This document shows, piece after piece, positions 7,855 to 62,047 of a stretch of 64,000 nucleotides of DNA. The DNA is from a virus. Its lineage: Duplodnaviria > Caudoviricetes. Made by a program: the position numbers and the translations under genes. The DNA lies in the IMG/VR virus record IMGVR_UViG_3300035675_000001. The stretch is one strand, 5' to 3'. Each line of letters starts with the position of its first letter. Positions within the stretch are counted from its first letter, which is position 1. The notes beneath the pieces were generated by a model, which saw nothing but the letters and a program-made list of their open reading frames with translations, did no database searches and was not told where the DNA came from.

Positions 7855-7860
7855 CGTTCT
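7855..7860 (+). promoter_or_regulatory. CGTTCT motif
   Basis: 7 nt before ATG 7868. Confidence 0.5.
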
Positions 7861-17142: not shown

Positions 17143-17155
17143 CGGTTGAAATTGT

Positions 17156-18211
17156 TTACAAATGTGCTCCGGCTCCGCGCTGGCCAGGGAGGTCGGTGCC
17201 CAGGCGCATAATCTCCCGGTCCACGCTGTGGGGCCTCTCCCGCTCGGTGACGGCGTAGAGCGCAGCATCCACGTCGTCGTTGGCGTCATTGGTCAGCCGG
17301 GCCGTGCCGTCCGCGTTTTTCCCGTGCGGCATCTTGGCAACCGATACAGGCATCACAGAGCTGAGCCGCAGCGCAGTCTCCACGGCCAGGCCGGTGGAAT
17401 CGCTGTCGTAGAGGATGCAAAACTCCTTGATGTGCCGGTAACGCTGAAACTTGGCTACCTGGGACCGGCTGAGACGATGCGTGAAGATACAGACCGGGAC
17501 GATGTGCTGGATGTCCAGCTCCCGCAGCTTGCGGCGGATCGAGAGCGTGTTCAGGATCGACTCGACCACGATTACCAGGCTGATATTCGGGTCGGCCAGC
17601 GCGTCCAGGTTGTAAACCCAGTAGCTCGGCCCATAGGGCACTTCCTTTTTGCTGGGGAACTTCTTGGTGGTCTCGAAGCCCTCGTCGGAGTAGGTGCGGC
17701 CCTGGTAATAGACGCAGCGCACGCCCTCATAGACCGGGAAGATGCAGAAAGGCTCCCAATTTCCTGTCCGCGTGAATCCGGCCCCCGCTTCCTCCAGGTC
17801 TTCGATGCCCAGGTGCTTACGCTCGGCCATGTCCTTGCAGAAACGCCAGTAGCAGCTCTTTCGGTTCTTGGCCAGCGGGCTGAACCCCTCCGGCAGCTCG
17901 ATGTTCTGGACCGGCGTGACCGCCTGCTTCATGTCGCCCCGGAGCGTCTGGCCGAACTCGTCAAACCCGGCGCTGCCATCATCCGTCCAGCTCAGCCCCT
18001 TCAACTTGAACAGGGCGGCAACGTGGTGCGGCTGGGGGTCGTGGCAGCGCCAGCAATGCGACCGTAAGGTCTTGACGTTGATGCTGCGATTTCCCGTTCT
18101 ATCTCCACAGCCAGGCACGGGGCAGACGATGTAGATTTCATCGTCCGTCGTGCGGTCTTTGATGACCTCAAAGACGTTGCCAATCTCGCGTTTGACCCTA
18201 TCCGGCGACAT
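17156..18211 (-). CDS. dnaG: DNA primase (Zn finger + TOPRIM), DnaG/gp61-like
   Basis: CPVPGC..CWRC zinc finger, YYQGR, VVES, YDSD; start ATG 18211 (MSPDRVK). Confidence 0.85.
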   Translation of the reverse strand: MSPDRVKREIGNVFEVIKDRTTDDEIYIVCPVPGCGDRTGNRSINVKTLRSHCWRCHDPQPHHVAALFKLKGLSWTDDGSAGFDEFGQTLRGDMKQAVTPVQNIELPEGFSPLAKNRKSCYWRFCKDMAERKHLGIEDLEEAGAGFTRTGNWEPFCIFPVYEGVRCVYYQGRTYSDEGFETTKKFPSKKEVPYGPSYWVYNLDALADPNISLVIVVESILNTLSIRRKLRELDIQHIVPVCIFTHRLSRSQVAKFQRYRHIKEFCILYDSDSTGLAVETALRLSSVMPVSVAKMPHGKNADGTARLTNDANDDVDAALYAVTERERPHSVDREIMRLGTDLPGQRGAGAHL

Positions 18212-23689: not shown

Positions 23690-25416
23690 ACGCGGACAAC
23701 CTGTAACCCGGCCACATAGCCGACGATTTCAATTCTGATTACGGAGCCTGGAACCACGTCCAGTCCGGTAAAAAGAACGAAGTTGTCGTTCTGTGTCCAC
23801 GAGGTTACCCCGGTCGGGGCGGTCGTCGCGTGAAGGATGGTTCCGCCGTCCACTTGGACGTAGTAGTCCGAACCAGCCGTTCCGAACTTCTGATCGCTGT
23901 AGAGGTAAAGCTGGTAGGTGCCGGGCGGCAGGCCGTGAAGCCGGAAAATGCTGTCGTAAGGAACCCCGCCCATGTCGTAGCCGCCGATCCAGGTCTGGAG
24001 CATCCCGTTCCAGGTCGGGGTCACGCCGCTGTTGTTGACCAGGGGCGCAATGCGCTCCAACCAGATCGGGGTGTCGGTTTGGACCGCATCCTTGAGGTAG
24101 ATGTAGGGCGTGGCGGAATAGGTGAAGCAGACTTCCGGCGCAAAGCTGTAATCGTAACCGCAGAAGCAGTTTCGGTAATCCTTGGTGAACGCCACGGGCA
24201 CGTAGTTGTTCCAATAGTCGCCCGTGGTGCCGACCACGGCAGGCCCCCAGTAGCGAGCGGTGGTGATGCCGTTTTCCAGGTCGAAATCGTCCGTGAGCAG
24301 TGTCGTGGCCGTGGTCAGGTTTTCGAGCGAGATGGAATCCAGGAGCGAGCCGTAAGCCTGGCCAGGGTCCGTTTCCAGCGCGATCTTTCGGAACGAGATT
24401 TTGCCGGTAGAGCCGTCCCCGACGAAATCGACGTAGTAGTCCTGGAACGGCTGCATGTAGTCGGTGATGTCGATGGTCGAATCCACCAGCGCCCCCGCTT
24501 TGTAGTTCAGGATTTCGTGGGCGCGGGCCAGGCGTTGGTTGCCCGCCGCCCGCCAGCTCAGGCGGAACGTCTGGCCGAGAGTGAAAGTGAAAGTGGTCTT
24601 GCTCTCCAAGCGCCCATACCAGCTCATGCTGCCGCCCGCGTTGCCGCTGCCGGACATGTCAATGTAGAGGCCGTTGCCGGGCAGGAAATCGTAGAAGCCC
24701 CGGCCAATCAGATCAACCGAGCCATTGTCCACGACATCCCAGTTGGTGAAATTCGAGTAGCCCAGTGCGCCACGCCCCTCGGTCACAGTGCCGTCGCTGC
24801 CATTGAAGTCGATGTTGACCAGCACCGGCTTCTGATAGCCCAAAATGTTTACAAAATAGTGAATGCCTCCCACAATCACCTGGCGGATGATCGTGGTGAA
24901 GGACCGAGGCAGCCTGTCGGCAGCCTCTTTGATGTAGCCGGTGCGCCCAACCGCGTGCGTGCCGTCCTGGAGCTGGAAATGGCGGCTGACCGAAGCAGGG
25001 TCGTATGCCTTGCCATACCACTTGATCTGGAAGAACAGCTCATCGGTGAGCAGGTAGCCGATGATGTCGCCGCGTTCGACCGGCTGGGCCGTCTGGACCG
25101 CGCAGGTGAGCAGGCCGTGGACCGTCGTCCACACGTCATTGCCGTGGTCAATGGTGATTTCGTAGGTGGGCTGAAAGCCGAGCTGGCTCCCGGACGTGTA
25201 TTTCCAGGTCGGAAAGATGAGCTTGATCGAGATGACTTTGCCCGCGCCCGGAGCGACGCAAGGCTCGCCCGTTTCAAACCGGTAAACGCAGCCCAGGTTG
25301 ACCTCGCCCTCAACGGAGAAGTCTTCCAGCAGGAACAACTTCTTCCGGCTGGGAGGCCGAAGCTTCTGGAGCGTCCATCGCGCTGGCAACTTCAATGGTG
25401 ACAGGTCTGGAATCAT
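23686..25416 (-). CDS. Virion protein with degenerate M23 peptidase-like N-terminus and beta-sandwich domains
   Basis: PCVAPGAGKV..ITIDHG..V.RGDIIGY..ELFFQI..YDP; Zn ligands missing. Confidence 0.65.
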   Translation of the reverse strand: MIPDLSPLKLPARWTLQKLRPPSRKKLFLLEDFSVEGEVNLGCVYRFETGEPCVAPGAGKVISIKLIFPTWKYTSGSQLGFQPTYEITIDHGNDVWTTVHGLLTCAVQTAQPVERGDIIGYLLTDELFFQIKWYGKAYDPASVSRHFQLQDGTHAVGRTGYIKEAADRLPRSFTTIIRQVIVGGIHYFVNILGYQKPVLVNIDFNGSDGTVTEGRGALGYSNFTNWDVVDNGSVDLIGRGFYDFLPGNGLYIDMSGSGNAGGSMSWYGRLESKTTFTFTLGQTFRLSWRAAGNQRLARAHEILNYKAGALVDSTIDITDYMQPFQDYYVDFVGDGSTGKISFRKIALETDPGQAYGSLLDSISLENLTTATTLLTDDFDLENGITTARYWGPAVVGTTGDYWNNYVPVAFTKDYRNCFCGYDYSFAPEVCFTYSATPYIYLKDAVQTDTPIWLERIAPLVNNSGVTPTWNGMLQTWIGGYDMGGVPYDSIFRLHGLPPGTYQLYLYSDQKFGTAGSDYYVQVDGGTILHATTAPTGVTSWTQNDNFVLFTGLDVVPGSVIRIEIVGYVAGLQVVRV

Positions 25417-27346: not shown

Positions 27347-27366
27347 AAAAGTTTACAAAACTTTCC

Positions 27367-31809: not shown

Positions 31810-34020
31810 TTAGCCAGTTACATTGGTGAGGTCTGCGCCGGACTCGCGGACGATTGCGTTGATGTAGATGCGCTCGACGGCATCAGTCGGGATGACGTAG
31901 AGATCAACGATCACTTCGCGCCGGTTCCGCGTGGCGGCGTTGTTGTTCGACTCGTCACAGACGAGGTTGTAGGCTTCGACGCCCCGGAGGCTCTTGACGC
32001 CATCGAGGAACTGCGTCATCGCCAGCTCAATCTGGTTGAGCAGCGTCACGTCGTTCGGGTCGAACACGAACCGGCGACCGATGACCGCCAACCCCTGGAC
32101 GATGTATTCGACCAGGACCAGGTTGTGAATCGCAGTGAGCTTGCTCTCCTTGCGCTGGAGAGTGCGCTCGCCGTAAACCATGATGGACCCGTTCCGCTGG
32201 ATGATCGGATTGACCGAGTTGCCGGAGCCATACATGGCCTCCTTGGCATTGTCGGACAACCGAGGGAACATGACCGAGGTCGCCTCGCTGATGATGCCCC
32301 GGTTCTCACCGGCAGCGGCATACCAGGGCTGGTCGTGCAACCAGGTGTAGGCCATCGCCCGGAGCGCCCCGATGCACGGGGGAACGAGCTTGGGCTGCTG
32401 GGTGATGGGGTCGTTCATCGTGAACCAATTCCAGAAGCACGCCAGGTAAGCCGTGTCGAGCTTGCCGCGAGACTGGAATTTGCCCTGGCCGTTGTGCCAG
32501 TCGATGGCGTCCCACACGTTCATCGGCACTCCGTTGTAGGAGGCCGGAACGTCGATGAGGCCGATGGACTTGGTGACGTAGGCCGTGTCGCGCATCTGCG
32601 TCTGGACCGGAACCATCGTCGCGTCCGCCGAGGTCACGCCAGGGGCGCACAGCGTGGTGATGTAAATGTTGTCGGTGTCCTCGTAGGACTTGAGGCCCGT
32701 CATGGTGTCGTCCACCGGGTTCAGGGTGCCGACGAAATCCGAAGCTTGCGCGGCCTCGCCGTTGTAACCGCTGGCGAAAGCACCGCCCGGCAGAGGCACG
32801 CCATACTTGGCCGTGTTGGTCGGGGATTGCGGGACCGGCAGCGTCGGGCTGCTGTTCCACGGATCGACCGTGTTGGCTGGAACCACGCTGCCGAGCAACT
32901 TGATGGTGATGTAGCTGGAAGGCGTGTCGGTGTTGATCGTGGCCTCGAACTCCAGGGGCGGAGCCGTGGTGGGGAAGGCGCTGTCGATGCCCAGGTTGTC
33001 GTAAACTTCGACCAGGGCCGAATCCCAGTAGATGCTGAACTTCTTGGTGCCCGCCTGAGTGCCGGGGCTGACCTTGACCTGCAACCCGCTGATGGGGTTC
33101 GAGTCGGTCGTATTGGCCCAGGTGCCTTCGGTCGCGGCGTAAATCAAGCACGAGTTGGTCTTGCCGGAGACCTTCTCCACCGTAGCCGCGTCGTAGCGGT
33201 CCTGGAGAGGAAGCGCCTGGTAGCCACGTTCGGTGTCATCCGTGGCCTGGATTTCAATGGTCGCCGCTCCGCTGATGATCGGGTTGACCCTGGTCACGTA
33301 AACCTCATAGGTCGGGAACTTGCCCGCCTGGCTAATCCGAAGGAGATCACCTACGGCGATGTCGGTCGGATTGGTCGTGACGCTGAAATAGTAGTTGCCC
33401 TTTTCACCGGAAACCGTGCCGAGAGTGGCAATGGCGGTGTAGGTGTAACCCTGGAGGACGCCCTGGGCTTTGCTCGCCGGGTTAGCGTAGTAGCTGAACT
33501 TGAGCGTGCCGTTCGTGTAGGTGTCGGCCAACGTCACCGATTCGAGGGTGACCGTGGTCCCGGAAACGCTGAGCACCTTCGCGTTCAGAGTGCTCTGCTT
33601 GCCGTCCTCCGTGATCGAGACGTAATACAGGCCGGTCGGAGAAGGCGTTTGGGTGGAATCCACCAGCGGAGCAGCATTTGTGGTGAAAGTCGAGGCTCCC
33701 GCAGTGCCCGTGACCGCGTAGCTGACAGTGCCAGCAGGCAGGTCTTTGTAGAGCAAGCCCACGCGCACGACCATGCAACCATCCGTGTATGGCGTGCAGA
33801 CGCCCACGGCGGTTCCGAGGAAGTAGTCGCCGTCAATCGGTGCGCCGAAGATGCGGACAAAATCCTGGATCGTGCGAACCTGGGTCGGCGTATTGAATGG
33901 GCCTTTGCTGGCCACACCAATCAGGCCGGGGCGGAATCGAGCAGTGTTCGTGTCGGAGAACGACTGGTCGATGATCTGCGTATAGACGCCCGGAAAGTTC
34001 TTTCGCTTAATCGTTGCCAT
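31810..34020 (-). CDS. gp18: Contractile tail sheath protein, gp18-like
   Basis: FPGVYTQIID..IGVASKGPFNTP; WYAAAGENRG; NSVNPI; YGERTLQ; CDESNN..ERIYI. Confidence 0.95.
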   Translation of the reverse strand: MATIKRKNFPGVYTQIIDQSFSDTNTARFRPGLIGVASKGPFNTPTQVRTIQDFVRIFGAPIDGDYFLGTAVGVCTPYTDGCMVVRVGLLYKDLPAGTVSYAVTGTAGASTFTTNAAPLVDSTQTPSPTGLYYVSITEDGKQSTLNAKVLSVSGTTVTLESVTLADTYTNGTLKFSYYANPASKAQGVLQGYTYTAIATLGTVSGEKGNYYFSVTTNPTDIAVGDLLRISQAGKFPTYEVYVTRVNPIISGAATIEIQATDDTERGYQALPLQDRYDAATVEKVSGKTNSCLIYAATEGTWANTTDSNPISGLQVKVSPGTQAGTKKFSIYWDSALVEVYDNLGIDSAFPTTAPPLEFEATINTDTPSSYITIKLLGSVVPANTVDPWNSSPTLPVPQSPTNTAKYGVPLPGGAFASGYNGEAAQASDFVGTLNPVDDTMTGLKSYEDTDNIYITTLCAPGVTSADATMVPVQTQMRDTAYVTKSIGLIDVPASYNGVPMNVWDAIDWHNGQGKFQSRGKLDTAYLACFWNWFTMNDPITQQPKLVPPCIGALRAMAYTWLHDQPWYAAAGENRGIISEATSVMFPRLSDNAKEAMYGSGNSVNPIIQRNGSIMVYGERTLQRKESKLTAIHNLVLVEYIVQGLAVIGRRFVFDPNDVTLLNQIELAMTQFLDGVKSLRGVEAYNLVCDESNNNAATRNRREVIVDLYVIPTDAVERIYINAIVRESGADLTNVTG

Positions 34021-34087
34021 ACACGTTCATCTTTCTCTCTATCTACGCTGCGTCATTTCGTGGTTTCGTGGTCAATTTTGTAAACAA

Positions 34088-35257
34088 TTACGCTAAATCC
34101 CGGCTCCAGCTCGACCGGAAGACCAAGGTCAGGGTGTGCGAATTGTCTTTGATCTGGTTGCTGTCCAAAACGAACACGTAAGCCGTCGAGGATGCCGCAA
34201 AAAAGTTGTTGGGAGCGTGGTATCCGTAGCCGAAGCTGCGCTGATCCACCCGATTGGCTGTTCCGACATTGAAAACGGCGGTCGCATCCACGTAAAAGCT
34301 GTTGGCTGTGTAAGATGCCCGCGTAACGGTGTCGGCGTAGCCCGCATTGGTATGGCGATTCACGCACGATCCAAATGTCGCCGGTGCCGCTGCGTTGGGA
34401 GACAGAAAGACTCCCCAATTTGAACCACCCGTGTTGAACGGTTCCGAAGTCAAAAATCCGTAGATTTGTGATGAACCGTTGGTGTCCACCGTGCCCAGTA
34501 GAGCGAGCTGCGCCTGTTCAACTCCGGTGGTCCCGGTCCAACCGGAGATCGCCGCCGACCTGGAAATGGGTGATCCAGGGTTCAGCGTGACTCGAAGCTC
34601 GTAGGTGACGCGCAACTGCTGGCCGATGTCCACAAACACGGGGGCAGGCAGCAGAACGCGGGCGAAAGTCGTGCTGGCTCCCGTATTCGTCCAGGAGAAG
34701 CCGATTTCCGTGTAGTTCTGTGCGGCGATCTCGATGGTGAAGTCGAAAGTGCGCCGGAACTGAAATTGATTGCCGACCTGGGTCGTGCCGCAGTTGCCCG
34801 CGCCGGTCAACTTGGTGTTGGTCCGCTTGGTCTCGATCTGGAGCGCCGTATCCTGTGTGTTGTATTTGACGAAATGGCCGCTGGCCGAAGCGGTCGAGGC
34901 TGTGCTGACGGTGGTCGAGTTCAGGTAGCTGCTGATGAGGGCGCGGGTGCCGTCGTCCCACTTCAACTCGGCTCCAACGTCGCTGGGATCGAAGAAAGAG
35001 GCGTCGGTCGAAATCGTGCCCGCCGCAAGCGTGGCGTTGGTGGTCAGGCTGTCCACGGAGGTCGGTCGGACGCCAGTGCCGCAGATCGCATACTCGAAGC
35101 TGCTCACCCAAGCCCGGCTGGCGATACCGTTCAGACCCGCGTTCAGGATCAGGTTCCTGATCCAGCCGGGGCCGGAGTCTCGAACGACCTTTCCGGTCGC
35201 TCCATCGACTACCGCCCACTTGAGGTAGCCGCCCGCTGATTGTGATGTCCGAGTCAT
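34088..35257 (-). CDS. Putative baseplate/tail virion protein
   Basis: NLILNAGLNGIA..ICGTG; LTLVFRSSWSR end; TAGATA 4 nt upstream (35262-35267). Confidence 0.65.
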   Translation of the reverse strand: MTRTSQSAGGYLKWAVVDGATGKVVRDSGPGWIRNLILNAGLNGIASRAWVSSFEYAICGTGVRPTSVDSLTTNATLAAGTISTDASFFDPSDVGAELKWDDGTRALISSYLNSTTVSTASTASASGHFVKYNTQDTALQIETKRTNTKLTGAGNCGTTQVGNQFQFRRTFDFTIEIAAQNYTEIGFSWTNTGASTTFARVLLPAPVFVDIGQQLRVTYELRVTLNPGSPISRSAAISGWTGTTGVEQAQLALLGTVDTNGSSQIYGFLTSEPFNTGGSNWGVFLSPNAAAPATFGSCVNRHTNAGYADTVTRASYTANSFYVDATAVFNVGTANRVDQRSFGYGYHAPNNFFAASSTAYVFVLDSNQIKDNSHTLTLVFRSSWSRDLA

Positions 35258-36881: not shown

Positions 36882-37154
36882 TCACTTGAGGGTAATCAGC
36901 AGGCTCGACTGAACGGGAAGCTTCGTGCCATTCGGCAGTTCGACATCAACAAAACCGCTGCCCTTGGCCGATGGGCCAACCACCTTGGCTTTGACACCAG
37001 GCTGGGCGTAAGTCGGATCGTCGATGATGGCAACCGTATCCCCGGAGTTTACATCCTCCGAGAGAATCCGATTGGCTGCCTCCTTGATGGAGGCGGGCTT
37101 CCTCACGTCGGCTTGCGCGACCGCTTCTTGGATCGTCTGTTCAATGTTCTTCAT
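36882..37154 (-). CDS. Small protein, SH3/KOW-like C-terminus
   Basis: GDTVAII..KAKVVG..FVDVELPNG; TACTTA 6 nt upstream. Confidence 0.65.
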   Translation of the reverse strand: MKNIEQTIQEAVAQADVRKPASIKEAANRILSEDVNSGDTVAIIDDPTYAQPGVKAKVVGPSAKGSGFVDVELPNGTKLPVQSSLLITLK

Positions 37155-42382: not shown

Positions 42383-44332
42383 ATGGCTGACCTTCGGATC
42401 AAGCGGATACAACTGAGAAACTGGACGACCGTGCAATCGGCGGACATCAGCTTTCCCGACAAGGGCTTAGTTTTGGTGATTGGATCGAACCTTGCCTCCG
42501 ATGGCAAGCTCCAGAGCGTGGGGTCCGGCAAGACAGCCCTGGGCGAAGCCCTCAGCCGGGCGCTGACGGGCGTGGCCGGGCGGTTCGCCAACCTGGGGCA
42601 CTACGCTTCGGACACGGCCCGCGTGCCCAATACGCTGGTGAAGGTCGAAGCCGAATTGCTCTCAAAACCCTTGACCGTGGAGATGGGCTTCAAGTGCCCG
42701 GAGCTGTCCAAGACCGGCGAGGGCTTGCGCTTCACCTACGACGGCAAAGTGATTCAGCGCGGGCATGTTGACCAAACCCGTGAGGAGCTTTCCCGGACCA
42801 TTCAAGTCACGTCCGAACTCGCAGAATGGACAGTCTTCCTCGACGGCGACAAGCTCAAGTTCAACCGGATGTCCCAGCAGGACTCCGTGAACCTGCTCAT
42901 GACCGCCCTGGCCCAGCCGCCCTGGACCGAATACTTCGAGCGGGCGACCAAGGTGCTCCAGGATGGCCGTCGCCAGGTCGCCCTTGCCAACCAGGCCCTC
43001 CAGAGCGCCAAGATGAAGCTGGAGCGCCTGCAAACAGACCTGGAGGACGCGCAGCAGGATCACAATGACGCCAAGGCCGAGTATGAGCGCCAGGTCGAGG
43101 AGTTGCAGGACCGCATCAAGGAGTTGAAGCGTCAAAATGTAAACGACCGCAACTCCGTGAAGGCGGCTGAGGATGGGATCGCCAAGCTCAAGAAGAAGAT
43201 CAAGCTCCTGGAGGAGCAACACGCGACCGCCGCCAAAGAACTTGACCTCCAGCGCCAGCAGCTCCGAGATCAGCTCGCCCTGCTCGACCAGGAGTGGCAG
43301 CAGGCCGTGGAAACCCGGTCCACACGCGACACGGAGGAGCGCCAGGCGCAGAAACGCCTGGACGCCATGAAGAAGGTGCCGAAGAACTGCCCCACCTGCA
43401 ACAAGCCCTGGGACAAGGCCCACAGCGACGAGGAGATGAAGAAAGCCGAGAAGGCGCTCAACGAGGCGACGCTGAATTACCAGGCAGCCGACCGGGCTTA
43501 CCAGGGGATTAAAACCAAGCGGGAGGGCATCCAGACGCGCATCCGGGAGATTCAGGACCAGATGGACGACGACACGCACCTGGCAGACGCCAAAGAGCTG
43601 GGCGAGCAGGTCACCGGCTACGAGCGGACCATCCGCAGCCTCAACGCGACCATCCAGGCCCGCGAGGTCAAGATCGCCGGGATGGCCAACGGCGTGGACA
43701 ACAGTTTTGTAAACAAAAAATCTGCCATCGTCGAGGAGCGCCAGCGGGCGCTCACGGCGGGCAACAAAGCCGTGGAAACTGCCGCCAGCGACCTGGCCGG
43801 TGAGGAGCAGGTCTTCAAGGTGCTCGAATACTGGCACAAGGCTTTTGGACCCACCGGCATCCCCAACATGGTCCTGGCCGACGCCATCCCGCCGCTCAAC
43901 CGTGTAGCCCAGCGCATCTCGAACATGATGACCGGGGGCACGCTCCAGGTCAGTTACGCAACCAAGCGCGAGTTGGCCACGGGCGACAGCAAAGCCCAGC
44001 TCATCATCAAGGTGGAAAACCGGATCGGCAGCAAGCGCCTGGAAGGCAGTTCCAAGGGCGAGTCGGGCCTGACCAACCTCATCATCGCGGAGAACTTGTC
44101 AGAAATCGGCCAGGTGTCGAACCGCGTCGGTTTCCGCTGGTATGACGAAATCACCAGCGGCCAGGATGCGGTCGTGCGCCGGAGCATTTTCAGCTACCTC
44201 AAGGAAGTGGCCAACAAGATGGGCATTCTGATCTTCGTGGTCGATCACCACGTCGAAGCCTCCAGCTACGCGGACTACGTGCTCGTGGCGGAAAAGACCA
44301 AGAACGAAGGCACGCGCTTTTTCTGGCGCTAA
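42383..44332 (+). CDS. sbcC: SbcC/Rad50-like (T4 gp46-like) ATPase
   Basis: IQLRNW, GSGKT Walker A, CPTC zinc hook, coiled coils, WYDE Walker B, VVDH. Confidence 0.9.
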   Translation: MADLRIKRIQLRNWTTVQSADISFPDKGLVLVIGSNLASDGKLQSVGSGKTALGEALSRALTGVAGRFANLGHYASDTARVPNTLVKVEAELLSKPLTVEMGFKCPELSKTGEGLRFTYDGKVIQRGHVDQTREELSRTIQVTSELAEWTVFLDGDKLKFNRMSQQDSVNLLMTALAQPPWTEYFERATKVLQDGRRQVALANQALQSAKMKLERLQTDLEDAQQDHNDAKAEYERQVEELQDRIKELKRQNVNDRNSVKAAEDGIAKLKKKIKLLEEQHATAAKELDLQRQQLRDQLALLDQEWQQAVETRSTRDTEERQAQKRLDAMKKVPKNCPTCNKPWDKAHSDEEMKKAEKALNEATLNYQAADRAYQGIKTKREGIQTRIREIQDQMDDDTHLADAKELGEQVTGYERTIRSLNATIQAREVKIAGMANGVDNSFVNKKSAIVEERQRALTAGNKAVETAASDLAGEEQVFKVLEYWHKAFGPTGIPNMVLADAIPPLNRVAQRISNMMTGGTLQVSYATKRELATGDSKAQLIIKVENRIGSKRLEGSSKGESGLTNLIIAENLSEIGQVSNRVGFRWYDEITSGQDAVVRRSIFSYLKEVANKMGILIFVVDHHVEASSYADYVLVAEKTKNEGTRFFWR

Positions 44333-52088: not shown

Positions 52089-53543
52089 TTAGCCGATGAC
52101 GGAACCGAAGGTCGTCGGGGAGTTCTGCACCAAGCCCCGGCAATACATCTTCGAGTTAATCATCTTCCGGGCGAAGCTCGTTGCAAAGCCCCGCTGGTGG
52201 ATGAAGTCGGGCAACACCACATCAGGCGTGGTGTAGAGTTTCTGGTATTCAGCCAAAACGTAGCCCGTGGTGAGGAACTGATCGCCCTTGTGTCCGACCA
52301 ACCACTCGTTGACCGGGAAGTGCGGGTCCGCAAACACCTTCTTGTTGCCGAGATCACCCAGGTAGGTGATGCCCTGCATCTGAGTCCGGGCATTGCGGGC
52401 CACGAACTGAGGCAGAGTGGCAACAACCGTCGCAGCCTGGAGGCCGAGGAGCAGCCAATTTCCGGCGACCATGTTGGTTGCGCCGAAGATGAAGTTGCTC
52501 GCCGTCTCGAAGGCGTCGATGATGCTGAACTTGTGGGTCTGGTAGTTCACCGAGGGCGGAGCCACGGCGTCCCAAACCACGAAGCCAGCGTCGGCACGAG
52601 CACGCAAATCGAAAATGACTTGGCGGTGCTTCTGGTAGGTCAACGCATTCGTCAGGGCGTTGAGCAGGACGCTCTCAGCCTTGATGTTATACATTGCCTG
52701 GAGGTTCTGATCCGCTTCCTCGGACCAGAGAGTCTTGAGCTTCATCACCTTCGCCGTGACCGGCGTGGAGCTGAGCTTCATCTCGTAGTCCTGGATGTTC
52801 AGGTTGCCCTCAGCGTTGAACGCATAGGTCGCGCTGTAGGTCGCGGCTGCCGCAACACCAGTGATGGTGATAGCGCCGGTGACGTAGTTCACCGTGCCGC
52901 CCAGGATGGCACCAACCGGAAGGATGTTGCCATTGCTGTCATCAGTGGTCACGTCCGAGCCAACCGTGATCGTCACGGTCCCGGCGCGGATCGGATACCA
53001 CTCCAACTGCCCGGCGTTGCCCGACAGGGTGCCGGTCTCGTCCTGAACGAGTTCGTCACCGTCGTCGTCGCGGTCCACCGCGCCTTGCAGAGCACGCCAC
53101 ATGGGAGCGCCAGCAGGGGTGCGGCCTTTGCGCCGACCGGTCACGATGTCCATGTAAACGATCTGGCTCACCGGACCAGCCATAGGCTGGAGGGCGACGA
53201 GCTGGTCGATCACATCGTTCTCGGACATGTTCGCAATGATGGGGAAAATCCATTTGTCGAACGTGCCCAGGGACGTGGTGCGAGTCACTTCGTCGAGTTG
53301 ACCGAAGCGGCTGCGGCAGTTTTCGAGCATAATCGCCGTGTAGGCCCGTTTGTGTTCGGGCATGTGGGCGACGAACTCCTTCCAGCCTTTGGCTTCCCAA
53401 AGGCCCTTGGGATTTTTGTCGGTAATTCCGACCGGCGTTTCGGCAAGTTTGTAACCCCATTCCAGCGTTTCCGTGAAACGGGCGATATGACCGCCGTTGG
53501 TCGCCAGCATCGGCCTACCGGTTACTGAGTCTTGAATAACCAT
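52089..53543 (-). CDS. gp23: Major capsid protein, T4 gp23-like
   Basis: AIMLENC, VALQPMAGPVSQIVY, VTAKVMKLKT.WSEEADQNLQAMYNI, RGFATSFA. Confidence 0.95.
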   Translation of the reverse strand: MVIQDSVTGRPMLATNGGHIARFTETLEWGYKLAETPVGITDKNPKGLWEAKGWKEFVAHMPEHKRAYTAIMLENCRSRFGQLDEVTRTTSLGTFDKWIFPIIANMSENDVIDQLVALQPMAGPVSQIVYMDIVTGRRKGRTPAGAPMWRALQGAVDRDDDGDELVQDETGTLSGNAGQLEWYPIRAGTVTITVGSDVTTDDSNGNILPVGAILGGTVNYVTGAITITGVAAAATYSATYAFNAEGNLNIQDYEMKLSSTPVTAKVMKLKTLWSEEADQNLQAMYNIKAESVLLNALTNALTYQKHRQVIFDLRARADAGFVVWDAVAPPSVNYQTHKFSIIDAFETASNFIFGATNMVAGNWLLLGLQAATVVATLPQFVARNARTQMQGITYLGDLGNKKVFADPHFPVNEWLVGHKGDQFLTTGYVLAEYQKLYTTPDVVLPDFIHQRGFATSFARKMINSKMYCRGLVQNSPTTFGSVIG

Positions 53544-55795: not shown

Positions 55796-56562
55796 CCCAT
55801 GAAACGCCGGAAGGAATTGTAAACAGTTTTGCCGTCGCCTTCCTTGTGCTCAGGCATGAGGGAAGCGCCGGGCTGAGCTGGAGTCATGGCGTTGGCGACC
55901 TTGGCGGCGATCTCAGCCGGATCGGCCATCGTGGCGACCATCGACTCGGCCATTGCCTGGAGTTCTTCGGGAGCAGGGTTCTGACGCCCCAGGATCGTGT
56001 CCATGACGCCTCTGGCGCTGGCCGAGGACGAAGTGCTGGGCTGGGTCATCGGCTGCTCACGGCCCATCTGCTGCGCGGCAGCGACGGACGGCGGGGGCAT
56101 GGGCCGCTCGGCAGGCTTCGGGGGTGCCGGAACCTGAGATGGATCAAGCTGTTGGAAGACGTTGGGGGTTACATCCGGCGCTACCAGGGCGGCGGTTGGT
56201 TGAATCAGCTCCTCACCCGCCACGTTGGTCGTAGCCTGGGGTTCTGCCGGGCCGTCTGCCGGAGGAAGCGGGTCCGTGCGGATGCCAGGGATGTTGGCCG
56301 CGCCGGTCATGTTGTCCATGCTTTGGGCGTCGGGCGGAATGATCGACTCGTCATCGGCTTCGGTCATGCCGATAATGCTGGCGACAACGCTGCTTTGACG
56401 GGCCTTCTGCCTGAGCTTATCGTCGTCTTTGTCTTTGGGCGGCACAGTCCGCTGCCTGCGCGGATCGTTGCGCTTGCCCGCCAACACGGGCGGCACGTCG
56501 CTCTCGTCCACCGGCCCTCTGCCGACCGGCTGCTTGCCAAGGATTTGGTCAACAAGGCTCAT
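55792..56562 (-). CDS. P/A/Q-rich hypothetical protein (possible internal head protein)
   Basis: GGAG SD; IIGMTEADDE junction. Confidence 0.7.
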   Translation of the reverse strand: MSLVDQILGKQPVGRGPVDESDVPPVLAGKRNDPRRQRTVPPKDKDDDKLRQKARQSSVVASIIGMTEADDESIIPPDAQSMDNMTGAANIPGIRTDPLPPADGPAEPQATTNVAGEELIQPTAALVAPDVTPNVFQQLDPSQVPAPPKPAERPMPPPSVAAAQQMGREQPMTQPSTSSSASARGVMDTILGRQNPAPEELQAMAESMVATMADPAEIAAKVANAMTPAQPGASLMPEHKEGDGKTVYNSFRRFMG

Positions 56563-57017
56563 CGTCCTACTCCAAGAATTTGCCTGGCCGGGTAGCCCTC
56601 AGCTTCTTCGGGCGTTTCGACCGAGGCTGGTTCAGTCGTGGCTAAGTCTTCACCAGGCACGCCTTCTTCGCCAGGAATGCTGCCAGAAGAATCATCCCCG
56701 CCCTGCTGCTCCAGGCGCTCGTCAGCAACCTTAGCCATCTCGATAGCCCCCTCGCGCCCAATGGCAAACACGAGCTTCACAGCTTCCTGGTTGCTCATGG
56801 TCATGAAGCGGGCAACCACTTCCTCGCGGTTGCCAGGCCACATCTTGGCCAGCTCGTTGACCTGAGTGTCTTCGGGAGTTCCGAGCGCAGCGGGACCGTC
56901 AGCTTCGGGCTTCGGCTGTGGCTTGGACTTCGGCTCAGCCGTAGGCTTTTCGGCCTTGGGCTTCTTCTCTTTATCGTCGGCTTCGGCCTCGCCGAGAATG
57001 CGTCTGATGATGTCCAT
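56559..57017 (-). CDS. Acidic hypothetical protein (possible internal head protein)
   Basis: IIRRILGEAE start; TAGTTA 6 nt upstream (57024-57029). Confidence 0.7.
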   Translation of the reverse strand: MDIIRRILGEAEADDKEKKPKAEKPTAEPKSKPQPKPEADGPAALGTPEDTQVNELAKMWPGNREEVVARFMTMSNQEAVKLVFAIGREGAIEMAKVADERLEQQGGDDSSGSIPGEEGVPGEDLATTEPASVETPEEAEGYPARQILGVGR

Positions 57018-57026
57018 ACGCCCTAA

Positions 57027-57944
57027 CTACGCGGGCGCATCGACCAAAACATACTGTCCGAGATTGTCCACCGGGATACCCATTCCGCTATGGCCCCCGG
57101 CGATCTTCGGCAGCCGCAGATAAAAAGGCCGGTAGATCGGCTCCTGGCCGTAACGCTTGCTGATGTAGGACATGACCTCGTAGGACTCGTGATCCGCCAG
57201 CTTGCGCTCAGCACCGCCGAAGCTGGTGGGCACGTCCTGGTGCCGGAGCATCGGCTGCGGGAACTCCAGATCGAGGCAGTTCTGCATTTGGCCATCCAGG
57301 TTGATGAATCCACCCAGCCTCGCTCGGATGGTGTAGTCGCAGTGCTCCTCGCCGAAACGACCGAAACGCGCATCGAAGTAACCGATCCTGTCGAAGCAGG
57401 CGCGGGTCACTGACATCATGATGCCAGTCATGCGCGGAAGAAGCTTCACTTTGTAGCCGCGAGAATTGACCGTGACCCAGCGGTAGGTTTCAGGCGCACC
57501 AGAGATGGCCGGTGATGCCTGGGTGAAGTCGCAAAAGCAAAACATGCCCACGTCCAGGTCTTCATGGCCGCGAGCATAAAAGTTTACAAAATCACCCACG
57601 ACGAACAGGTCGTCGTTGAGCAGGCACAGATGGTCACACCCGGTTTCAGAAAACCACTTGAGCGCCCGGTTCGAGTTTCCCGCTACGCCCAGGTTGGTGC
57701 TGCCCAGGAACACCTGGATGTTTGGACCCAGGTGAGCACCGCTGTATTCCGCCGCCAACAGGTCAATCCGGTCCTGGACCTTGACCGGCGCGGGTCCGCG
57801 CAGGAAGGTCTCTGTCCCGTCGCGCTGGCCGCAATCCTCGAAGATCGCAGTTGGATACTGCGAGCAGTGTTGGGAAAGCCCGGAGAGGCAGTCCTTGAGC
57901 GCGTTGACGCGATTATACGTGAGGATGGCGACGGCTGATTTCAT
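57027..57944 (-). CDS. GT2 family glycosyltransferase
   Basis: AILTYNRVNALKDCL..IFEDCG..NLGVAGNSN..LLNDD..GYFDARFGRFGEEHCDY. Confidence 0.85.
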   Translation of the reverse strand: MKSAVAILTYNRVNALKDCLSGLSQHCSQYPTAIFEDCGQRDGTETFLRGPAPVKVQDRIDLLAAEYSGAHLGPNIQVFLGSTNLGVAGNSNRALKWFSETGCDHLCLLNDDLFVVGDFVNFYARGHEDLDVGMFCFCDFTQASPAISGAPETYRWVTVNSRGYKVKLLPRMTGIMMSVTRACFDRIGYFDARFGRFGEEHCDYTIRARLGGFINLDGQMQNCLDLEFPQPMLRHQDVPTSFGGAERKLADHESYEVMSYISKRYGQEPIYRPFYLRLPKIAGGHSGMGIPVDNLGQYVLVDAPA

Positions 57945-58264
57945 GCGGCGGGTGGTGTGGGGGCAAGTTTGGTTTGGACGGCAGTCTTGAGTTCCTTGCC
58001 CGTCTTGAACCGGATCACCGGCCTTGACGGGATGCGGACCTCGCCGGATTCAGGGTGCTTCGGGTTGCGCCCAACGCGCTCTTTGGACATGCGGACTTCC
58101 CAAATGCCAAAGCCTCGAAATTCAACTCGACGACCCGATCCCAGGGTGGTCTCGATCTGTTTGAGGAAAGCTTCAACGACCGATTCGACAACCGCCTGGG
58201 ACTGATTGGTCGTGGCGGCTACGGCTTTGACAGCTTCGATTTTAGTGAGTGTTTGGTTGTTCAT
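57941..58264 (-). CDS. hup: HU/IHF DNA-binding protein
   Basis: LTKIEAV..GRRVEFRGFGIWEV..RVGRNPK..IPSRPVIRFKTGKELK. Confidence 0.92.
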   Translation of the reverse strand: MNNQTLTKIEAVKAVAATTNQSQAVVESVVEAFLKQIETTLGSGRRVEFRGFGIWEVRMSKERVGRNPKHPESGEVRIPSRPVIRFKTGKELKTAVQTKLAPTPPAA

Positions 58265-58267: not shown

Positions 58268-58657
58268 TCATTTTTGTCCTGATAGGTAGGCTACTGCGAT
58301 CCGTGCCGATGCGTTCGGCAACATGGCGATGTCCGCGTGTGCTTTCAGCACGAACCACGAGCACCGAAAAACGAGAGAGATAAGCCAGATCAGCTTGAAC
58401 ATGATGCTGGCCATCAGGACTGCCAGCAGGACCAGCAGCTTGGGCGTGCCTTCCGGGCTGGACTGATGGAATAGAAACCAGAAGCCGGACACGATCCACA
58501 TGACCAGGATGACGGCGAGCATGATCCAGTCAAACACGGTCCACCAGCCCGCTTCCTTGAGGGCCTGCCATTGGGTCATGGGTTTTTCAACGATGACGGT
58601 GCCCTGGGCCTGGGGAGGCGGGGGCGCTCCGGCTGGAGTGGGGATTGCGTCTGCCAT
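58268..58657 (-). CDS. Two-TM membrane protein (holin-like topology possible)
   Basis: Two long hydrophobic helices. Confidence 0.65.
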   Translation of the reverse strand: MADAIPTPAGAPPPPQAQGTVIVEKPMTQWQALKEAGWWTVFDWIMLAVILVMWIVSGFWFLFHQSSPEGTPKLLVLLAVLMASIMFKLIWLISLVFRCSWFVLKAHADIAMLPNASARIAVAYLSGQK

Positions 58658-58658: not shown

Positions 58659-60176
58659 CTATGCCTTGGTGAAGGTCATCTGAGCGTGCGCCCGGATGAG
58701 GTTGACTGCCTCGGAAGCGTTCATGTCGTCGGGAAGATACCAGGAGGGACGACCGCCTTTCTCGCCCGATTCGAGCTTGAGGGACGGCTTGAGTTCGTCA
58801 GCCGGGGTGATGAACCTCAGCCGCAACGGCGAGGTTTGTTTGCCGATGGAGAAGATGAGCTGCATACCCTCGGTGTCCAATCGGTCTTTGTGCCGGTAGC
58901 AGATTTCGCCCTGGTGCTTCACGCGGCGGAAGTTCTCGTCCAGGAAGGTCAGGATTTCTTCCTCGCGCTCGCTGTCGGCAAAGGCCGTGTCGTTGGCCAT
59001 GAACGTGGGCCGGATGACCGGGACGCGAGCGTGGCGCGATCCAAGCAGCTTGTGACTGATGGTGATTTCGCCCAGCCCGAAGTTGGAAGCTTTCAGCTCG
59101 CAACCCTCACGCATACCGCAATTTATACACGAACGGTGGTGCTTCTGAAACATAATTCCGAAGCACTTGAACCGGTCGTTGCGGACCTCCGGGATGGGGA
59201 TGTTGCACAGCCGCATGGCCTCCTTGATCCCCTCGTTGTCTTTGAGGCGGTCAAACTGGTGCTGGGCCGCGAGCATGAGCGCCCGCTTGCGCGTGATCTC
59301 GTCGATGCTCCTGGGGATTTGGACGCCAAAAAATTGAAGCAAGGTCGCCATCGCCGCTGTCAGACGAGGGTCGTCCTCCATGTGATTTTTCATAAACAAG
59401 CACTTCTCCTTAATGTCATCGTGAATCTGCTGGAACAGTTCCGGGGTGATCCGGCTGCCCAGCCCTTTGGCCAGATGCTCGATGCGAATGCGGACCCGCA
59501 GCGGCTCACCTACTTCACGACCGATTTCGGATTCCTGCTGCGCCAGCCAGCACGCCCGCTCGTTGTGCGCCATGATCTGTTCCAGGACCATGACCTCAAC
59601 CGGTTCCAGCCGGACGGTGACCTCCTCCATCAGCTCGCGCATCTTCATTGCGTCGTCGCCGGAGTCGAGGTCGGAAATCTGAAAGCCATTGTCCGGGTCG
59701 TCGATGCGGACTTCCTGCGGCTTGGTCGAGACGGGGCTGAAATTGTTGCGCTGATCCTTGGGTGGGGGCTTGATGCCGGTGCGCTTTTCGGTGAAGCGGT
59801 GCTTCTGCACCAGGCTGCAAATGTGGTTGCGAAGGGCAGTCTTATACTGCTTGAAGTATTCGACTCGGTTCCGGCATCGGCTGAGCAATCCCTTGGAGTT
59901 CATCTCCACGGTCTTGGCCCAGCACTCCGATACCAGGTCATCGAAGTGAAGCTCGACGCAGGATTGATCCACGTAACCGGCCACGACCTTGTGGATCAGG
60001 TTGGCCATGTCGCTGACCATCTCCTCATAGACCGGGGGCCGCAGGTCGGCCTGCGCGAAAATCAAAAACAGCCGGTTCTTCGGAGGCGCAAACCTCTGTT
60101 TCTCGACATGGATAGGCGCAGCCCAGGAGGCCCGCACATCAATGGCTATGTGGATCGTCGTCTCCATACACTTCAT
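58659..60176 (-). CDS. Sigma70/ECF region-2-like protein with Cys cluster and C-terminal extension
   Basis: LIHKVVAGY..FDDLVSECWAK..YKTALRNHICSL; CFG..CINC..C cluster. Confidence 0.6.
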   Translation of the reverse strand: MKCMETTIHIAIDVRASWAAPIHVEKQRFAPPKNRLFLIFAQADLRPPVYEEMVSDMANLIHKVVAGYVDQSCVELHFDDLVSECWAKTVEMNSKGLLSRCRNRVEYFKQYKTALRNHICSLVQKHRFTEKRTGIKPPPKDQRNNFSPVSTKPQEVRIDDPDNGFQISDLDSGDDAMKMRELMEEVTVRLEPVEVMVLEQIMAHNERACWLAQQESEIGREVGEPLRVRIRIEHLAKGLGSRITPELFQQIHDDIKEKCLFMKNHMEDDPRLTAAMATLLQFFGVQIPRSIDEITRKRALMLAAQHQFDRLKDNEGIKEAMRLCNIPIPEVRNDRFKCFGIMFQKHHRSCINCGMREGCELKASNFGLGEITISHKLLGSRHARVPVIRPTFMANDTAFADSEREEEILTFLDENFRRVKHQGEICYRHKDRLDTEGMQLIFSIGKQTSPLRLRFITPADELKPSLKLESGEKGGRPSWYLPDDMNASEAVNLIRAHAQMTFTKA

Positions 60177-61173
60177 ACTCCCCTGATCGTCGTGGGTCTA
60201 ACACTTCGACCATTTCGTGGTAAAGGTCTTGCGCCGTCCGCGCATTTTTACCGTGACGTTCCCCGACTTCCGCCACAGAGTCAGGGTCTTTGTCTCCGGC
60301 TTCAACTTCATCAAAAATCTGTTTCGCTTCGACCAGGGCAGAGAGCTGCGCGATGGTCGGAATCTTGAGCCGCATACCGCCATAGACGGCACATAGATAC
60401 TTGCCGTGAACCTTCCAGGTGAACGGCGTGTTGGGCATGTCGAAAAGGTTGACGAAATGGGTGTAGCTGTAGGCTGCCCGAACTAAGTCCTCCTCCGTGA
60501 AGGGCACCCGGATGCGCCGATACATCTGATCGCGCATGGCCACGAGCGCCCATGAATAGAAAAACTTGGCCAGTTCCAAGGAGATGCCGTAAGCATAAGC
60601 GGCACCCTTCACTGCCGACTGCTTATCGTGGTCCTCCTCCAAAATGCACTCGATGAGAAAGTGGATGGCCCCAATCTCTTGCGGCGTTCCCCACCGGCAG
60701 GTCAGGTTCGCCAGCCTGGCGCGAACCTCCGTGGCCATGTCGTGCTTATCAACCGCGTGGTCCTCGGCCCCAAAGAACTTTTCCAGGTTGTCGGACGTGA
60801 CGTGGTATCGTTTACGAAACTGATTGACCTTGACCAGCTCCGAGCGGAAGGCGTTTTTGGCGCACTTGCTGAACCAGGCGAACAGCTTGCCTTTTTTGCG
60901 CTGCCAGCGCAGCAGCCATTTGACGACCTTCTCCTGCGCGGCGGACACGAGGATGTCCAAATCTACGGTGTAATGGTAACCCTCGTGCTGGGCCAGCCGC
61001 TCGAACATCTGCGTGGACCCCACCACAATTTCCTCCAGGACAAGCATGGCCTCCGTGTGCCTGCCCTGCGAGTTAAGCTCCTTCCAACGGAGAGCCAGCG
61101 GCTCCAGATAACTGGCCGGGAAAATGTGTTCACCGGCAACCGTAGGAACGGGCTGTGTGAGGTTTTTCGACAT
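60139..61173 (-). CDS. Late sigma factor-like protein (T4 gp55-like)
   Basis: DILVSAAQEKVVKWLLRWQRKKGKLFAWFSKCAKNAFRSEL resembles gp55 DMISD..ENC...NPFAYFTQII..AF. Confidence 0.65.
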   Translation of the reverse strand: MSKNLTQPVPTVAGEHIFPASYLEPLALRWKELNSQGRHTEAMLVLEEIVVGSTQMFERLAQHEGYHYTVDLDILVSAAQEKVVKWLLRWQRKKGKLFAWFSKCAKNAFRSELVKVNQFRKRYHVTSDNLEKFFGAEDHAVDKHDMATEVRARLANLTCRWGTPQEIGAIHFLIECILEEDHDKQSAVKGAAYAYGISLELAKFFYSWALVAMRDQMYRRIRVPFTEEDLVRAAYSYTHFVNLFDMPNTPFTWKVHGKYLCAVYGGMRLKIPTIAQLSALVEAKQIFDEVEAGDKDPDSVAEVGERHGKNARTAQDLYHEMVEVLDPRRSGEYEVYGDDDPHSH

Positions 61174-61982
61174 CAGGATTTGAACTTGAGGGGGTCACAA
61201 GTATCCTGGTAGTCCCGAACGATGTCCTCCAACTTTTTCTGCCGTGCCTCCGCGCTGGGAAAACGCTCATAGTGCTCCGACATGTTCAACGCCGACAGCA
61301 GCAGTGAATAAATCGAGCTTTGGACGGAGTAATGCGGGTATTTGGAGTAATCAAATTCGGGCGGTAGTTTGAGCGGCTGCCGCTCAGGCGGCAATTCGCT
61401 TTCCGGCATGGCCGGTTCCTCCGGCTTGGCAGCGGGCACAGCTTCCGCTGCGGGCGCTGGCTCAACCGGAGTGTTCGTCTTGACGGGCTTAACCGGCGCT
61501 ACGGCCTTGACCTTCTTCGGCGGAGGCGGCGGTTCGACCTTCTTCTTGGCAGGAGGCGGAGGCGGCGGGGGCGGCGGGTCCGGCGCAGCCGGTTTAACCG
61601 CCTTGGCCTTCTTCGGTTTTTCCTTTGCCGATTCCGGCTGGGCCGGAGCAGGCGCAGGACTGGCAGGAGCCGTCGCGGGGGAGCTGTTGTTCGGGCCAGG
61701 AGAACCCAGCCGCATCATGACCCGCGCTGCCATTCGCAGCACTTCATTCAGCGGCACCTTATGGGCATCCTTACCCTCACCGTGCAGAGCCTCCGTGATT
61801 TCGACGGTTTCCTTGGAGAAAAACACCTTCTCCCCGAAGCGCGTCTCAATCGGATGCGTCTTCGGGCTGAGCTTGTCACGGATGGCAGGCTGGCTTTCCA
61901 GAATTTCCTGCACCCGCTCATAGCGCATCGAAGTCGGCAGCTTTGACTGCGGCTTCGTTTCAGTTGCGATGGCAGTGCTCAT
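61173..61982 (-). CDS. Pro/Ala/Lys-rich hypothetical protein
   Basis: Globular ends with PPPPPPP/PAK linker. Confidence 0.7.
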   Translation of the reverse strand: MSTAIATETKPQSKLPTSMRYERVQEILESQPAIRDKLSPKTHPIETRFGEKVFFSKETVEITEALHGEGKDAHKVPLNEVLRMAARVMMRLGSPGPNNSSPATAPASPAPAPAQPESAKEKPKKAKAVKPAAPDPPPPPPPPPAKKKVEPPPPPKKVKAVAPVKPVKTNTPVEPAPAAEAVPAAKPEEPAMPESELPPERQPLKLPPEFDYSKYPHYSVQSSIYSLLLSALNMSEHYERFPSAEARQKKLEDIVRDYQDTCDPLKFKS

Positions 61983-62047
61983 ACAGTCGTCGTGGTTCTT
62001 GATGTAACGGGACAGTATTTTTTGTCCACACTTTTAAGTAAAAAAAT

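Follow-up and report, generated by a model that had tools for sequence, protein, structure and literature searches.

Two adjacent, unrelated sigma-like genes in an uncultured T4-like jumbo phage, one of them joined to a predicted metal site and a double-wing domain

Cascades of phage sigma factors are well established in T4 (gp55) and in SPO1 (gp28 and gp33/34), and T4 MotA works together with AsiA in sigma appropriation. The gp55-type sigma factors read AT-rich late promoters that consist of a minus-10 element only, and many extracytoplasmic function (ECF) sigma factors read minus-10 elements that contain CGT. What is known about such cascades rests on a handful of cultured phages (T4, SPO1). 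Here, we analyze two neighboring genes, called A and B below, on a single 64,000-nt stretch of DNA (the window) from an uncultured virus of the Duplodnaviria/Caudoviricetes, IMGVR_UViG_3300035675_000001. Taken as a whole, our observations are best explained, and we think with reasonable probability, by A and B being phage sigma factors that redirect the host RNA polymerase (RNAP) core, each to a promoter class of its own.

First, our comparisons show that A and B are a conserved adjacent pair of unrelated genes. Both open reading frames (ORFs) lie on the minus strand where a sequence-only reading of the window had placed them, and the 38-bp overlap that it had reported is present (60139-60176); its description of the two genes as dissimilar agrees with an hhalign probability of 0.2% for a match between them. 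In public gene calls, B begins with codon 4, the ATG at 60167, which gives a product of 502 aa (P0121) and an overlap of 29 bp. This start has better Shine-Dalgarno spacing than the one at 60176, with GGGGAG, which is encoded in the conserved tail of A, as the Shine-Dalgarno sequence upstream of B. The GC content at third codon positions of B is 0.79, and true genes in the window have about 0.7-0.83. We regard A and B as a conserved pair because distant relatives share the gene order and because about 19 contigs, as judged by their size and including ones of 3-5 kb, are common to the match lists of both proteins. The order that is kept runs from a recombinase and a metallopeptidase through a gene of about 230-270 aa to A, B and a small membrane protein, and it persists in relatives in which B is only 31-40% identical.

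The window comes from a jumbo phage that is uncultured, T4-like and contractile-tailed. Its genes include those for a T4-type portal and a tail sheath, along with one for a UvsX-like recombinase, and the ORF at 52089-53543 resembles annotated major capsid proteins of cultured phages (23-29% identity); in relatives, genes for a gp23-type capsid protein and a gp21-type protease lie just downstream of the A-B locus. Homologs of A and B sit on metagenomic contigs of 220-250 kb, and DNA of the window occurs in wetland, subsurface and soil metagenomes. Searches with tblastn among 50,697 GenBank phage records returned no match to A or B.

Second, the model of A predicts a sigma-70-family protein of three domains with a gp55-like sigma2, a conclusion that we draw from fold matches together with weak but coherent sequence signals. 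An AlphaFold2 model built from 36 relatives, with a mean predicted local distance difference test score (pLDDT) of 79.5, was compared exhaustively with 48,161 chains of the Protein Data Bank (PDB). The best match was T4 gp55 in the gp45-dependent activation complex (7d7d_F, Z 11.5, 124 of 137 residues), aligned to residues 17-185 of A. Ranks 1-34 were all sigma factors, gp55 being followed by sigmaB, sigmaE region 2, SigW, SigC and others, and the sigma2 domain matched 2mao (Z 10.3, root-mean-square deviation (rmsd) 3.3, 100 aligned residues) and 2o7g_B (Z 10.1, rmsd 2.4, 88 aligned). Foldseek likewise returned sigma chains in all of its top 50 PDB rows, with roughly 180-400 columns aligned, and all 30 of 30 matches in the Swiss-Prot part of the AlphaFold Database (AFDB) were sigma factors, including RpoH, residues 1-284 of which aligned over residues 1-328 of A (probability 1.00, E 1.6e-3).

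At the level of sequence, hhalign of A against an alignment of eight gp55 sequences gave E 0.0035 and a probability of 9% over 95 columns (A 10-113 to gp55 9-110). This alignment puts CAKNAF opposite ACFNAF and is collinear with the structural match, so that the gp55-like region 2 proposed by the sequence-only reading is borne out by the fold and, more weakly, by a profile that includes the NAF motif it had quoted; the string KLFAWFSKCAKNAF lies at residues 96-109. The same comparison with the lone T4 gp55 sequence gave nothing, a single sequence being too weak for it, and the A family profile found nothing among all PDB sequences. PHROG 836, a late transcriptional activator, matched residues 259-322 (E 0.0018), and PHROG 234, the late sigma factor gp55, was reached at E 0.14. 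In Pfam, Sigma70_r2 was found weakly in 7 of the 36 relatives (best E 0.0073), with A itself at 11.6 bits and under the gathering cutoff of 24, and Mor matched the C-terminal helix-turn-helix (HTH) in 17 of the 36 (best E 6e-6); neither region 3 nor region 4 of the Pfam sigma families gave a signal for A. The fold of this HTH resembles the DeoR HTH (Z 6.7) and Mu C (9l0x_G, Z 6.1), and in the tail that ends the protein P327, R329, G331 and E332 show little or no variation. The gp55 homologs that we compared measure about 157-202 aa, and A, at 344 aa, is longer than the short protein of about 160-200 aa without sigma4 that is typical of them. A sigma2 of gp55 type joined to a Mor-type HTH appears to be undescribed.

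Third, residues 44-267 of B are predicted to form a divergent ECF-like module of sigma2 and sigma4 without sigma3, for which the structural Z scores are modest. The AlphaFold2 model of the whole protein has a mean pLDDT of 76, with 83-96 in the assigned domains. The sigma2-like domain matched 1sig_A (over residues 50-126; Z 7.7, rmsd 2.8, 71 aligned), the N-domain of SigE (8b3z_A, Z 7.6) and domain 2 of sigmaA (4x8k_A, Z 7.2), and the sigma4-like HTH domain matched 3mzy_A (Z 7.9, rmsd 2.2, 70 aligned), SigD4 (3vep_D, Z 7.6) and region 4 of sigmaE on minus-35 DNA (2h27_D, Z 6.4). Moreover, whole ECF chains span both domains in order, for example SigL (6dv9_F, Z 7.5 over residues 49-267) and also SigK, SigH and BldN, and about 36 of the best 50 structural rows are sigma proteins. 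These predicted domains, in the order of an ECF sigma factor, fit the ECF-like region 2 (with the strings DDLVSECWAK at residues 79-88 and KTALRNHI at 112-119) and the region-4-like segment that had been noticed in the sequence. A predicted sigma2 fold had been named beforehand as one of two observations on which the sigma interpretation would stand or fall, and it was found in the models of A and B alike.

Since the Z scores are modest, the case for a sigma fold in B leans on other observations. Language-model neighbors, which are a lead by sequence features rather than an alignment and are independent of the fold model, point to sigma factors: Sigma70_r2 is present in 72 of the 100 nearest named clusters of residues 44-270, the highest score being 0.95. 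In addition, a stand-alone homolog of 234 aa and thus of ECF size (P0304, L014 1948-2652) covers residues 48-260 with 34% identity. Across 160 sequences, the basic, proline-rich linker between the two domains, FTEKRTGIKPPPK, retains R132 without exception (100%) and T129 and K131 at 97%. In established holoenzyme structures ECF linkers thread through RNAP, and by analogy the conserved linker of B would occupy the place where they run through the polymerase. Finally, the relative P0279 (899 aa) carries a LAGLIDADG intein in the sigma2-like KTAxxN helix, between K112-T113 and L115-R116-N117, and inteins typically lie in essential, conserved sites. As a side observation, the gene for P0304 sits on a 7.3-kb contig that is far removed from a jumbo-phage context, and its neighbor there resembles a phage integrase gene.

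Fourth, B continues beyond its sigma module with a four-cysteine (Cys4) site and a C-terminal domain for which a double-wing fold is predicted. The cysteines are C338, C350, C353 and C359, in a segment of moderate pLDDT, and all four are shared by 159 of the 160 full-length relatives; the cluster recorded in the sequence-only reading is thus present and conserved, although its spacing is CFG-x9-C-x2-C-x5-C rather than CFG-x8. A C-x2-C-x5-C motif with a fourth cysteine upstream is the [4Fe-4S] spacing of WhiB-like (Wbl) proteins, which act bound to sigma region 4, and of the iron-sulfur cluster loop (FCL) of DNA glycosylases. Pfam scans of B and its relatives gave no Whib match, and B has no G[VI]WGG turn. 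Judged by its spacing, which suits both equally, the predicted site may bind zinc or a [4Fe-4S] cluster.

The extra C-terminal domain is confidently modeled over about 106 residues (400-505), somewhat less than the 130 aa or so first estimated, and five structure libraries concur on its fold. Its closest structural matches are DR2400 (2a1v, Z 7.3, rmsd 2.9, 96 aligned) and YjbR (2fki, Z 7.1), and Foldseek found the C-terminal domain (CTD) of T4 MotA (1kaf/5jlt) with a probability of 0.77-0.82. BFVD yielded MotA models of Acinetobacter and Erwinia phages, AFDB yielded MmcQ/YjbR and TfoX_N proteins, and the ESM Atlas yielded a YjbR cluster (template modeling (TM) score 0.59, rmsd 2.8), TfoX-type clusters (TM scores 0.53 and, for TfoX/Sxy, 0.62) and DUF1801 and DUF5655 clusters. 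The domain therefore shares the fold of the group against which it was tested, namely MotA CTD, YjbR (PF04237), TfoX_N, DUF1801 and DUF5655. At the level of sequence profiles, no Pfam match to this group was found in B or its relatives, hhalign against the single T4 MotA sequence gave a probability of 0.1%, a single sequence being too weak for such a comparison, and a feature search of the Atlas with residues 270-505 returned no usable hit. The MotA chain 6k4y_M aligned with B over 233 columns (E 0.06), with no separate match to the N-terminal domain of MotA; what precedes the double wing in B is sigma-like. The C-terminal half of B may also exist as a separate protein (P0297 and similar). According to a passage of PMC7641849, which cites Singarapu et al. 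2007, YjbR-type proteins share the double-wing DNA-binding fold of MotA CTD. The fold lends some support to the early guess that B might carry a co-activator of its own. Our full-text literature searches found no description of a sigma factor fused to MotA or a double-wing domain, or of an ECF extension fused to MmcQ, and the architecture of B, sigma2-sigma4 followed by Cys4 and double wing, appears to be undescribed.

Fifth, the two promoter-like motif classes that had been named for the window exist and are conserved before genes in relatives. TAGTTA occurs in 10 copies where 3.45 are expected, a number reached in 0 of 100 shuffles, and 8 of the 10 precede a same-strand start codon by no more than about 25 nt. 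The wider class TA[GC][TA]TA (typically GTAGTTA or TAGATAGA) precedes 11 genes, most of them virion genes, at a distance of 4-19 nt from the start; among them are those for the portal, the sheath and a 1397-aa protein. CGTTCT is only marginally enriched (45 copies against 31.7), and another 11 genes have GTTCT 4-22 nt ahead of their starts. In the relatives L001 and L002, too, both classes precede genes, for example the orthologue of 56559-57017, with TA[GC][TA]TA at L001 13253 and at L002 12682 and 785. Within 45 nt upstream of the GTTCT or TA[GC][TA]TA sites no conserved column resembling a minus-35 element or a MotA box was seen. In front of the operon, a sigma70-like promoter candidate was read by eye (Table 1); a scanner for consensus sigma70 promoters returned no coding-strand site around the operon, not even this candidate.

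Our preferred reading, that A and B take over the host RNAP core, would work as follows. The phage appears to have no RNAP of its own, because no RNAP gene is seen in the window and because, in a survey of 224 jumbo phages, the T4-like 'group 2' with gp23-type capsids lacks RNAP and encodes two sigma types together with gp33 (PMC7824862). The host sigma factor would make both A and B first, since their operon lies behind the sigma70-like promoter candidate. A would be a distant gp55 relative that retained the sigma2-sigma3-sigma4 layout, with the Mor-type HTH at the position of sigma4, and would drive virion genes through the minus-10-only element TA[GC][TA]TA. The sigma module of B would bind the core polymerase and read a short minus-10-like element, for which GTTCT/CGTTCT is the candidate, and contacts of its C-terminal module with a partner or with DNA further upstream would stand in for conventional minus-35 reading, so that the module would be a built-in counterpart of MotA. 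The assignment of A to the AT-rich, minus-10-only class and of B to the CGT-containing class fits by analogy with the preferences of gp55-type and ECF sigma factors, and a three-tier scheme, host sigma first and phage sigma factors after it, would fit the observations; binding of A and B to RNAP, the pairing, the temporal order and the role of the C-terminal module of B are putative. If the motifs are promoters, the mRNAs would be leaderless, given how close the motifs are to the start codons.

A bolder version of this reading, which we think rather unlikely, is that B carries out sigma appropriation in one chain: a phage sigma factor would be joined to a MotA-type double-wing DNA reader that replaces minus-35 recognition, an iron-sulfur or zinc cluster would couple the modules and sense host redox state or iron, and B would represent a large unannotated viral sigma family of at least 249 clusters at 50% identity.

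Several observations weigh against our preferred reading, and most of them concern B. B has no match at E<=1 in Pfam or PHROGs and thus no sequence-level link to sigma-70 proteins, and Pfam scans (E<=0.1) of 37 relatives and 20 divergent members found no sigma family, including in the B-homologous region of these 20 divergent or truncated proteins. The B family profile found noise only among all PDB sequences, and hhalign of B against the gp55 alignment found nothing. A search of 1.84 billion representative proteins with the B profile returned just 249 hits; the 150 of these that are listed all score at least as well as E 1e-34 and resemble members or fragments of the family, so that HMMER shows no tie from B to the numerous cellular sigma factors, and the family amounts to 249 clusters at 50% identity. 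Z scores of 7-8 lie in a range that small helical domains may reach by chance, as the tool itself warns, and the Foldseek E-values for the whole model are weak (0.03-0.6). Furthermore, the double-wing domain lacks a basic character (net charge -2, isoelectric point (pI) 5.9). The lack of a conserved upstream element at the 11 GTTCT sites weakens the idea of reading a MotA-box-like sequence, and the motifs, being so close to start codons, may be signals for translation or RNA processing instead.

Some of these points suit a different role for the C-terminal half of B. It is possible, though in our view not probable, that B is a sigma factor in which Cys4 and double wing form a regulatory or sensor domain, that is, an on-board anti-sigma or a redox or metal switch as in ECF41, ECF42, CorE and OrbS, with an iron-sulfur or zinc cluster gating activity according to host physiology. 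The C-x2-C-x5-C motif is typical of [4Fe-4S] clusters, and both the slightly acidic character of the domain and the GTTCT sites without a conserved upstream DNA element speak in favor of such a role. As PMC8999054, PMC9023288 and PMC3107203 describe, cellular ECF sigma factors with C-terminal extensions, some of them cysteine-rich, are regulated through these. On the other hand, the fold group includes a proven DNA binder, MotA CTD, together with predicted ones, as noted in the passage of PMC7641849 mentioned above. The known types of ECF extension (SnoaL_2, TPR and cysteine-rich domains (CRDs)) were not detected in B or its relatives by Pfam scans, and the possible existence of the C-terminal half as a separate protein suits a partner acting in trans at least as well.

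The assignment of motifs to proteins is a second point of doubt. The pairing could be reversed or not one-to-one, with A serving the non-virion GTTCT genes or both proteins acting at the same promoters in the manner of SPO1 gp33/gp34, or the motifs could be translation or RNA processing signals; we hold such alternatives to be less probable than our preferred reading, but far from negligible. The link between protein and motif rests on analogy rather than computation, both motifs are separated from start codons by 4-19 nt, and one pair of GTTCT sites forms an inverted repeat that may be an operator. In favor of the proposed pairing, the promoter preferences of gp55-type and ECF sigma factors agree with it, and the TA[GC][TA]TA class precedes portal, sheath and other virion genes. 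We consider it improbable that B is not an initiation factor at all but a regulator of DNA or RNAP built from generic three-helix and HTH domains, such as a decoy that blocks the host sigma factor or an ordinary activator: B does lack HMMER-level homology to sigma factors, Z scores of 7-8 over 65-75 aligned residues are common among small helical domains and non-sigma rows such as 3t38_B, 3a4l_A and 4k12_B reach similar values, but its two domains match sigma2 and sigma4 in the correct order and spacing with whole ECF chains aligning, its sequence-feature neighbors are sigma clusters, a stand-alone homolog of ECF size exists and the conserved linker would sit where ECF linkers thread through RNAP.

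The genes on either side of the pair complete the picture of the locus. The stop of the 269-aa gene upstream overlaps the start of A, to which it is translationally coupled, and its position is syntenic in relatives; searches of Pfam, PHROG and the Atlas by features found nothing for its product. A small membrane protein (107-129 aa, two hydrophobic segments) always follows B directly, as at L001 11529-11852 and L002 11439-11819. The slot just downstream of ECF genes is often taken by an anti-sigma gene, and no anti-sigma domain was recognized in the 129-aa protein found there in the window. On the same strand, the region 57027-58264 holds a gene for an HU-type DNA-binding protein (Pfam Bac_DNA_binding, E 3e-22) as well as one for a glycosyltransferase, the stop codon of the latter overlapping a TAGTTA element. 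In the relative L002, the A-B pair is preceded at a distance of about 10 kb by a tubulin/TubZ-like gene (1-441).

Two further sequence features were noted in the window. At 7829-7860, between the portal gene and a divergent 70-aa gene, two CGTTCT copies form the inverted repeat AGAACGG-N18-CCGTTCT, which may represent one operator instead of two promoters. In addition, the AT-rich word TTGTAAAC (core TGTAAACA/TGTTTACA) occurs in 24 copies against 0.62 expected in a window of 59% GC, in both orientations and at sites such as 17154-17161, 27351-27358, 34078-34085 and 43707-43714; about two thirds of the copies are intragenic, and several others shortly precede a start codon or stand about 10 nt ahead of GTTCT. 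GTTTACAA occurs in L002 too. That the dispersed motif (the TTGTAAACA sites) is a target of the double-wing domain of B remains only an idea, since most copies are intragenic.

Table 1. Coordinates of the genes, protein parts and promoter-like sites discussed in the text (positions in the 64,000-nt window; domain assignments are predictions)
Feature	Residues	Position	Strand	Description
Gene A		60139-61173	minus	ORF, 344 aa; predicted three-domain sigma-70-family protein, gp55-like sigma2
A sigma2 domain	17-124	60802-61125	minus	region-2-like motif LFAWFSKCAKNAF
A middle helical domain	140-220	60514-60756	minus	sigma3 position; covered by full-length alignments of sigmaB, sigma32 and RpoH
A acidic Mor/C-type HTH	268-333	60175-60372	minus	sigma4 position; pI 4.7
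A disordered C-terminal tail	325-344	60142-60201	minus	DPxR-x-GE-aromatic motif; pLDDT <50
Gene B		58659-60176	minus	ORF, 505 aa; predicted ECF-like sigma2-sigma4 module, Cys4 site and double-wing domain
B sigma2-like domain	44-129	59790-60047	minus	fold match
B sigma2-sigma4 linker	128-140	59757-59795	minus	FTEKRTGIKPPPK; most conserved segment of the B family
B sigma4-like HTH domain	171-267	59376-59666	minus	fold match
B helical region	268-325	59202-59375	minus	pLDDT 79-92; no fold-search row specific to the region
B Cys4 metal site	338-359	59100-59165	minus	C-x11-C-x2-C-x5-C; putative
B double-wing domain	400-505	58662-58979	minus	alpha+beta, YjbR/TfoX-N/MotA-CTD-like; basic linker before it
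Upstream gene		61173-61982	minus	269 aa; two small domains and a long proline/alanine/lysine-rich linker
Downstream gene		58268-58657	minus	129 aa, two transmembrane segments; starts 2 nt past the B stop
TGGACA-N16-TACATC		62001-62028	minus	sigma70-like promoter candidate, 18 nt before the ATG of the 269-aa gene
TAGTTA-class sites		4834, 7817, 8811, 16530, 26237, 38177, 57024 (minus strand)		
TA[GC][TA]TA variants		before 10381, 23686-25416, 31810-34020, 34088-35257, 36882-37154		

In summary, the sigma-like nature of A and B, the gp55 likeness of the former, the ECF likeness of the latter and its co-activator-like extra domain hold as predictions from the models. A widespread clade of uncultured T4-like phages of 220-250 kb keeps two unrelated sigma-like genes adjacent, and B founds a large family that is invisible to standard annotation. 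If our reading is correct, B would unite in one chain functions that T4 splits among sigma70, AsiA and MotA, and a metal cluster would be added to a viral sigma factor. The locus thereby offers testable hypotheses on how modules of promoter recognition recombine, and a handle for annotating the transcription programs of metagenomic jumbo phages.

Compared with known systems, A is closest to T4 gp55, its best structural match, to which it also has a weak, collinear profile match that includes the NAF motif. A too probably serves virion genes with a minus-10-only element, and its conserved disordered C-terminal tail may correspond to the clamp-binding tail of gp55. However, gp55 has 185 aa and lacks sigma3 and sigma4, whereas A has 344 aa with a middle domain and an acidic Mor-type HTH and aligns end to end with RpoH. 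A shares the domain order and length of the group 3 alternative sigma factors (RpoH, sigmaB, FliA/WhiG) and differs from them in that its C-terminal HTH scores as Mor and not as Sigma70_r4. B, in turn, resembles ECF sigma factors with C-terminal extensions (ECF41, ECF42, CorE/ECF44, OrbS) in its predicted sigma2-linker-sigma4 core and its long, partly cysteine-rich extension, and the small membrane protein gene right after B recalls the anti-sigma genes of ECF operons. In contrast to these sigma factors, B is phage-encoded, shows no detectable sequence homology to them and carries Cys4 and a double wing instead of SnoaL_2, TPR or known CRDs. With WhiB-like and FCL [4Fe-4S] motifs it shares the C-X2-C-X5-C spacing and the upstream fourth cysteine, but it has neither the Whib match nor the G[VI]WGG turn, and its motif lies inside a sigma polypeptide. 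The C-terminal domain of B matches structures and models of MotA CTD by Foldseek, and both proteins would be phage transcription components that act with a sigma factor. T4 MotA, however, is a separate protein of 211 aa that docks on host sigma70 through its N-terminal domain, while the domain of B is covalently joined to a phage sigma factor, and the structural Z scores favor YjbR/DR2400 (7.1-7.3), with MotA outside the top 50. Finally, the phage sigma factors of SPO1 (gp28, gp33/34) and of the group 2 T4-like jumbo phages replace the host sigma factor in temporal tiers, as we propose for A and B. Two sigma genes in a T4-like jumbo phage are of a kind already known, and the new element is the fused architecture of B.

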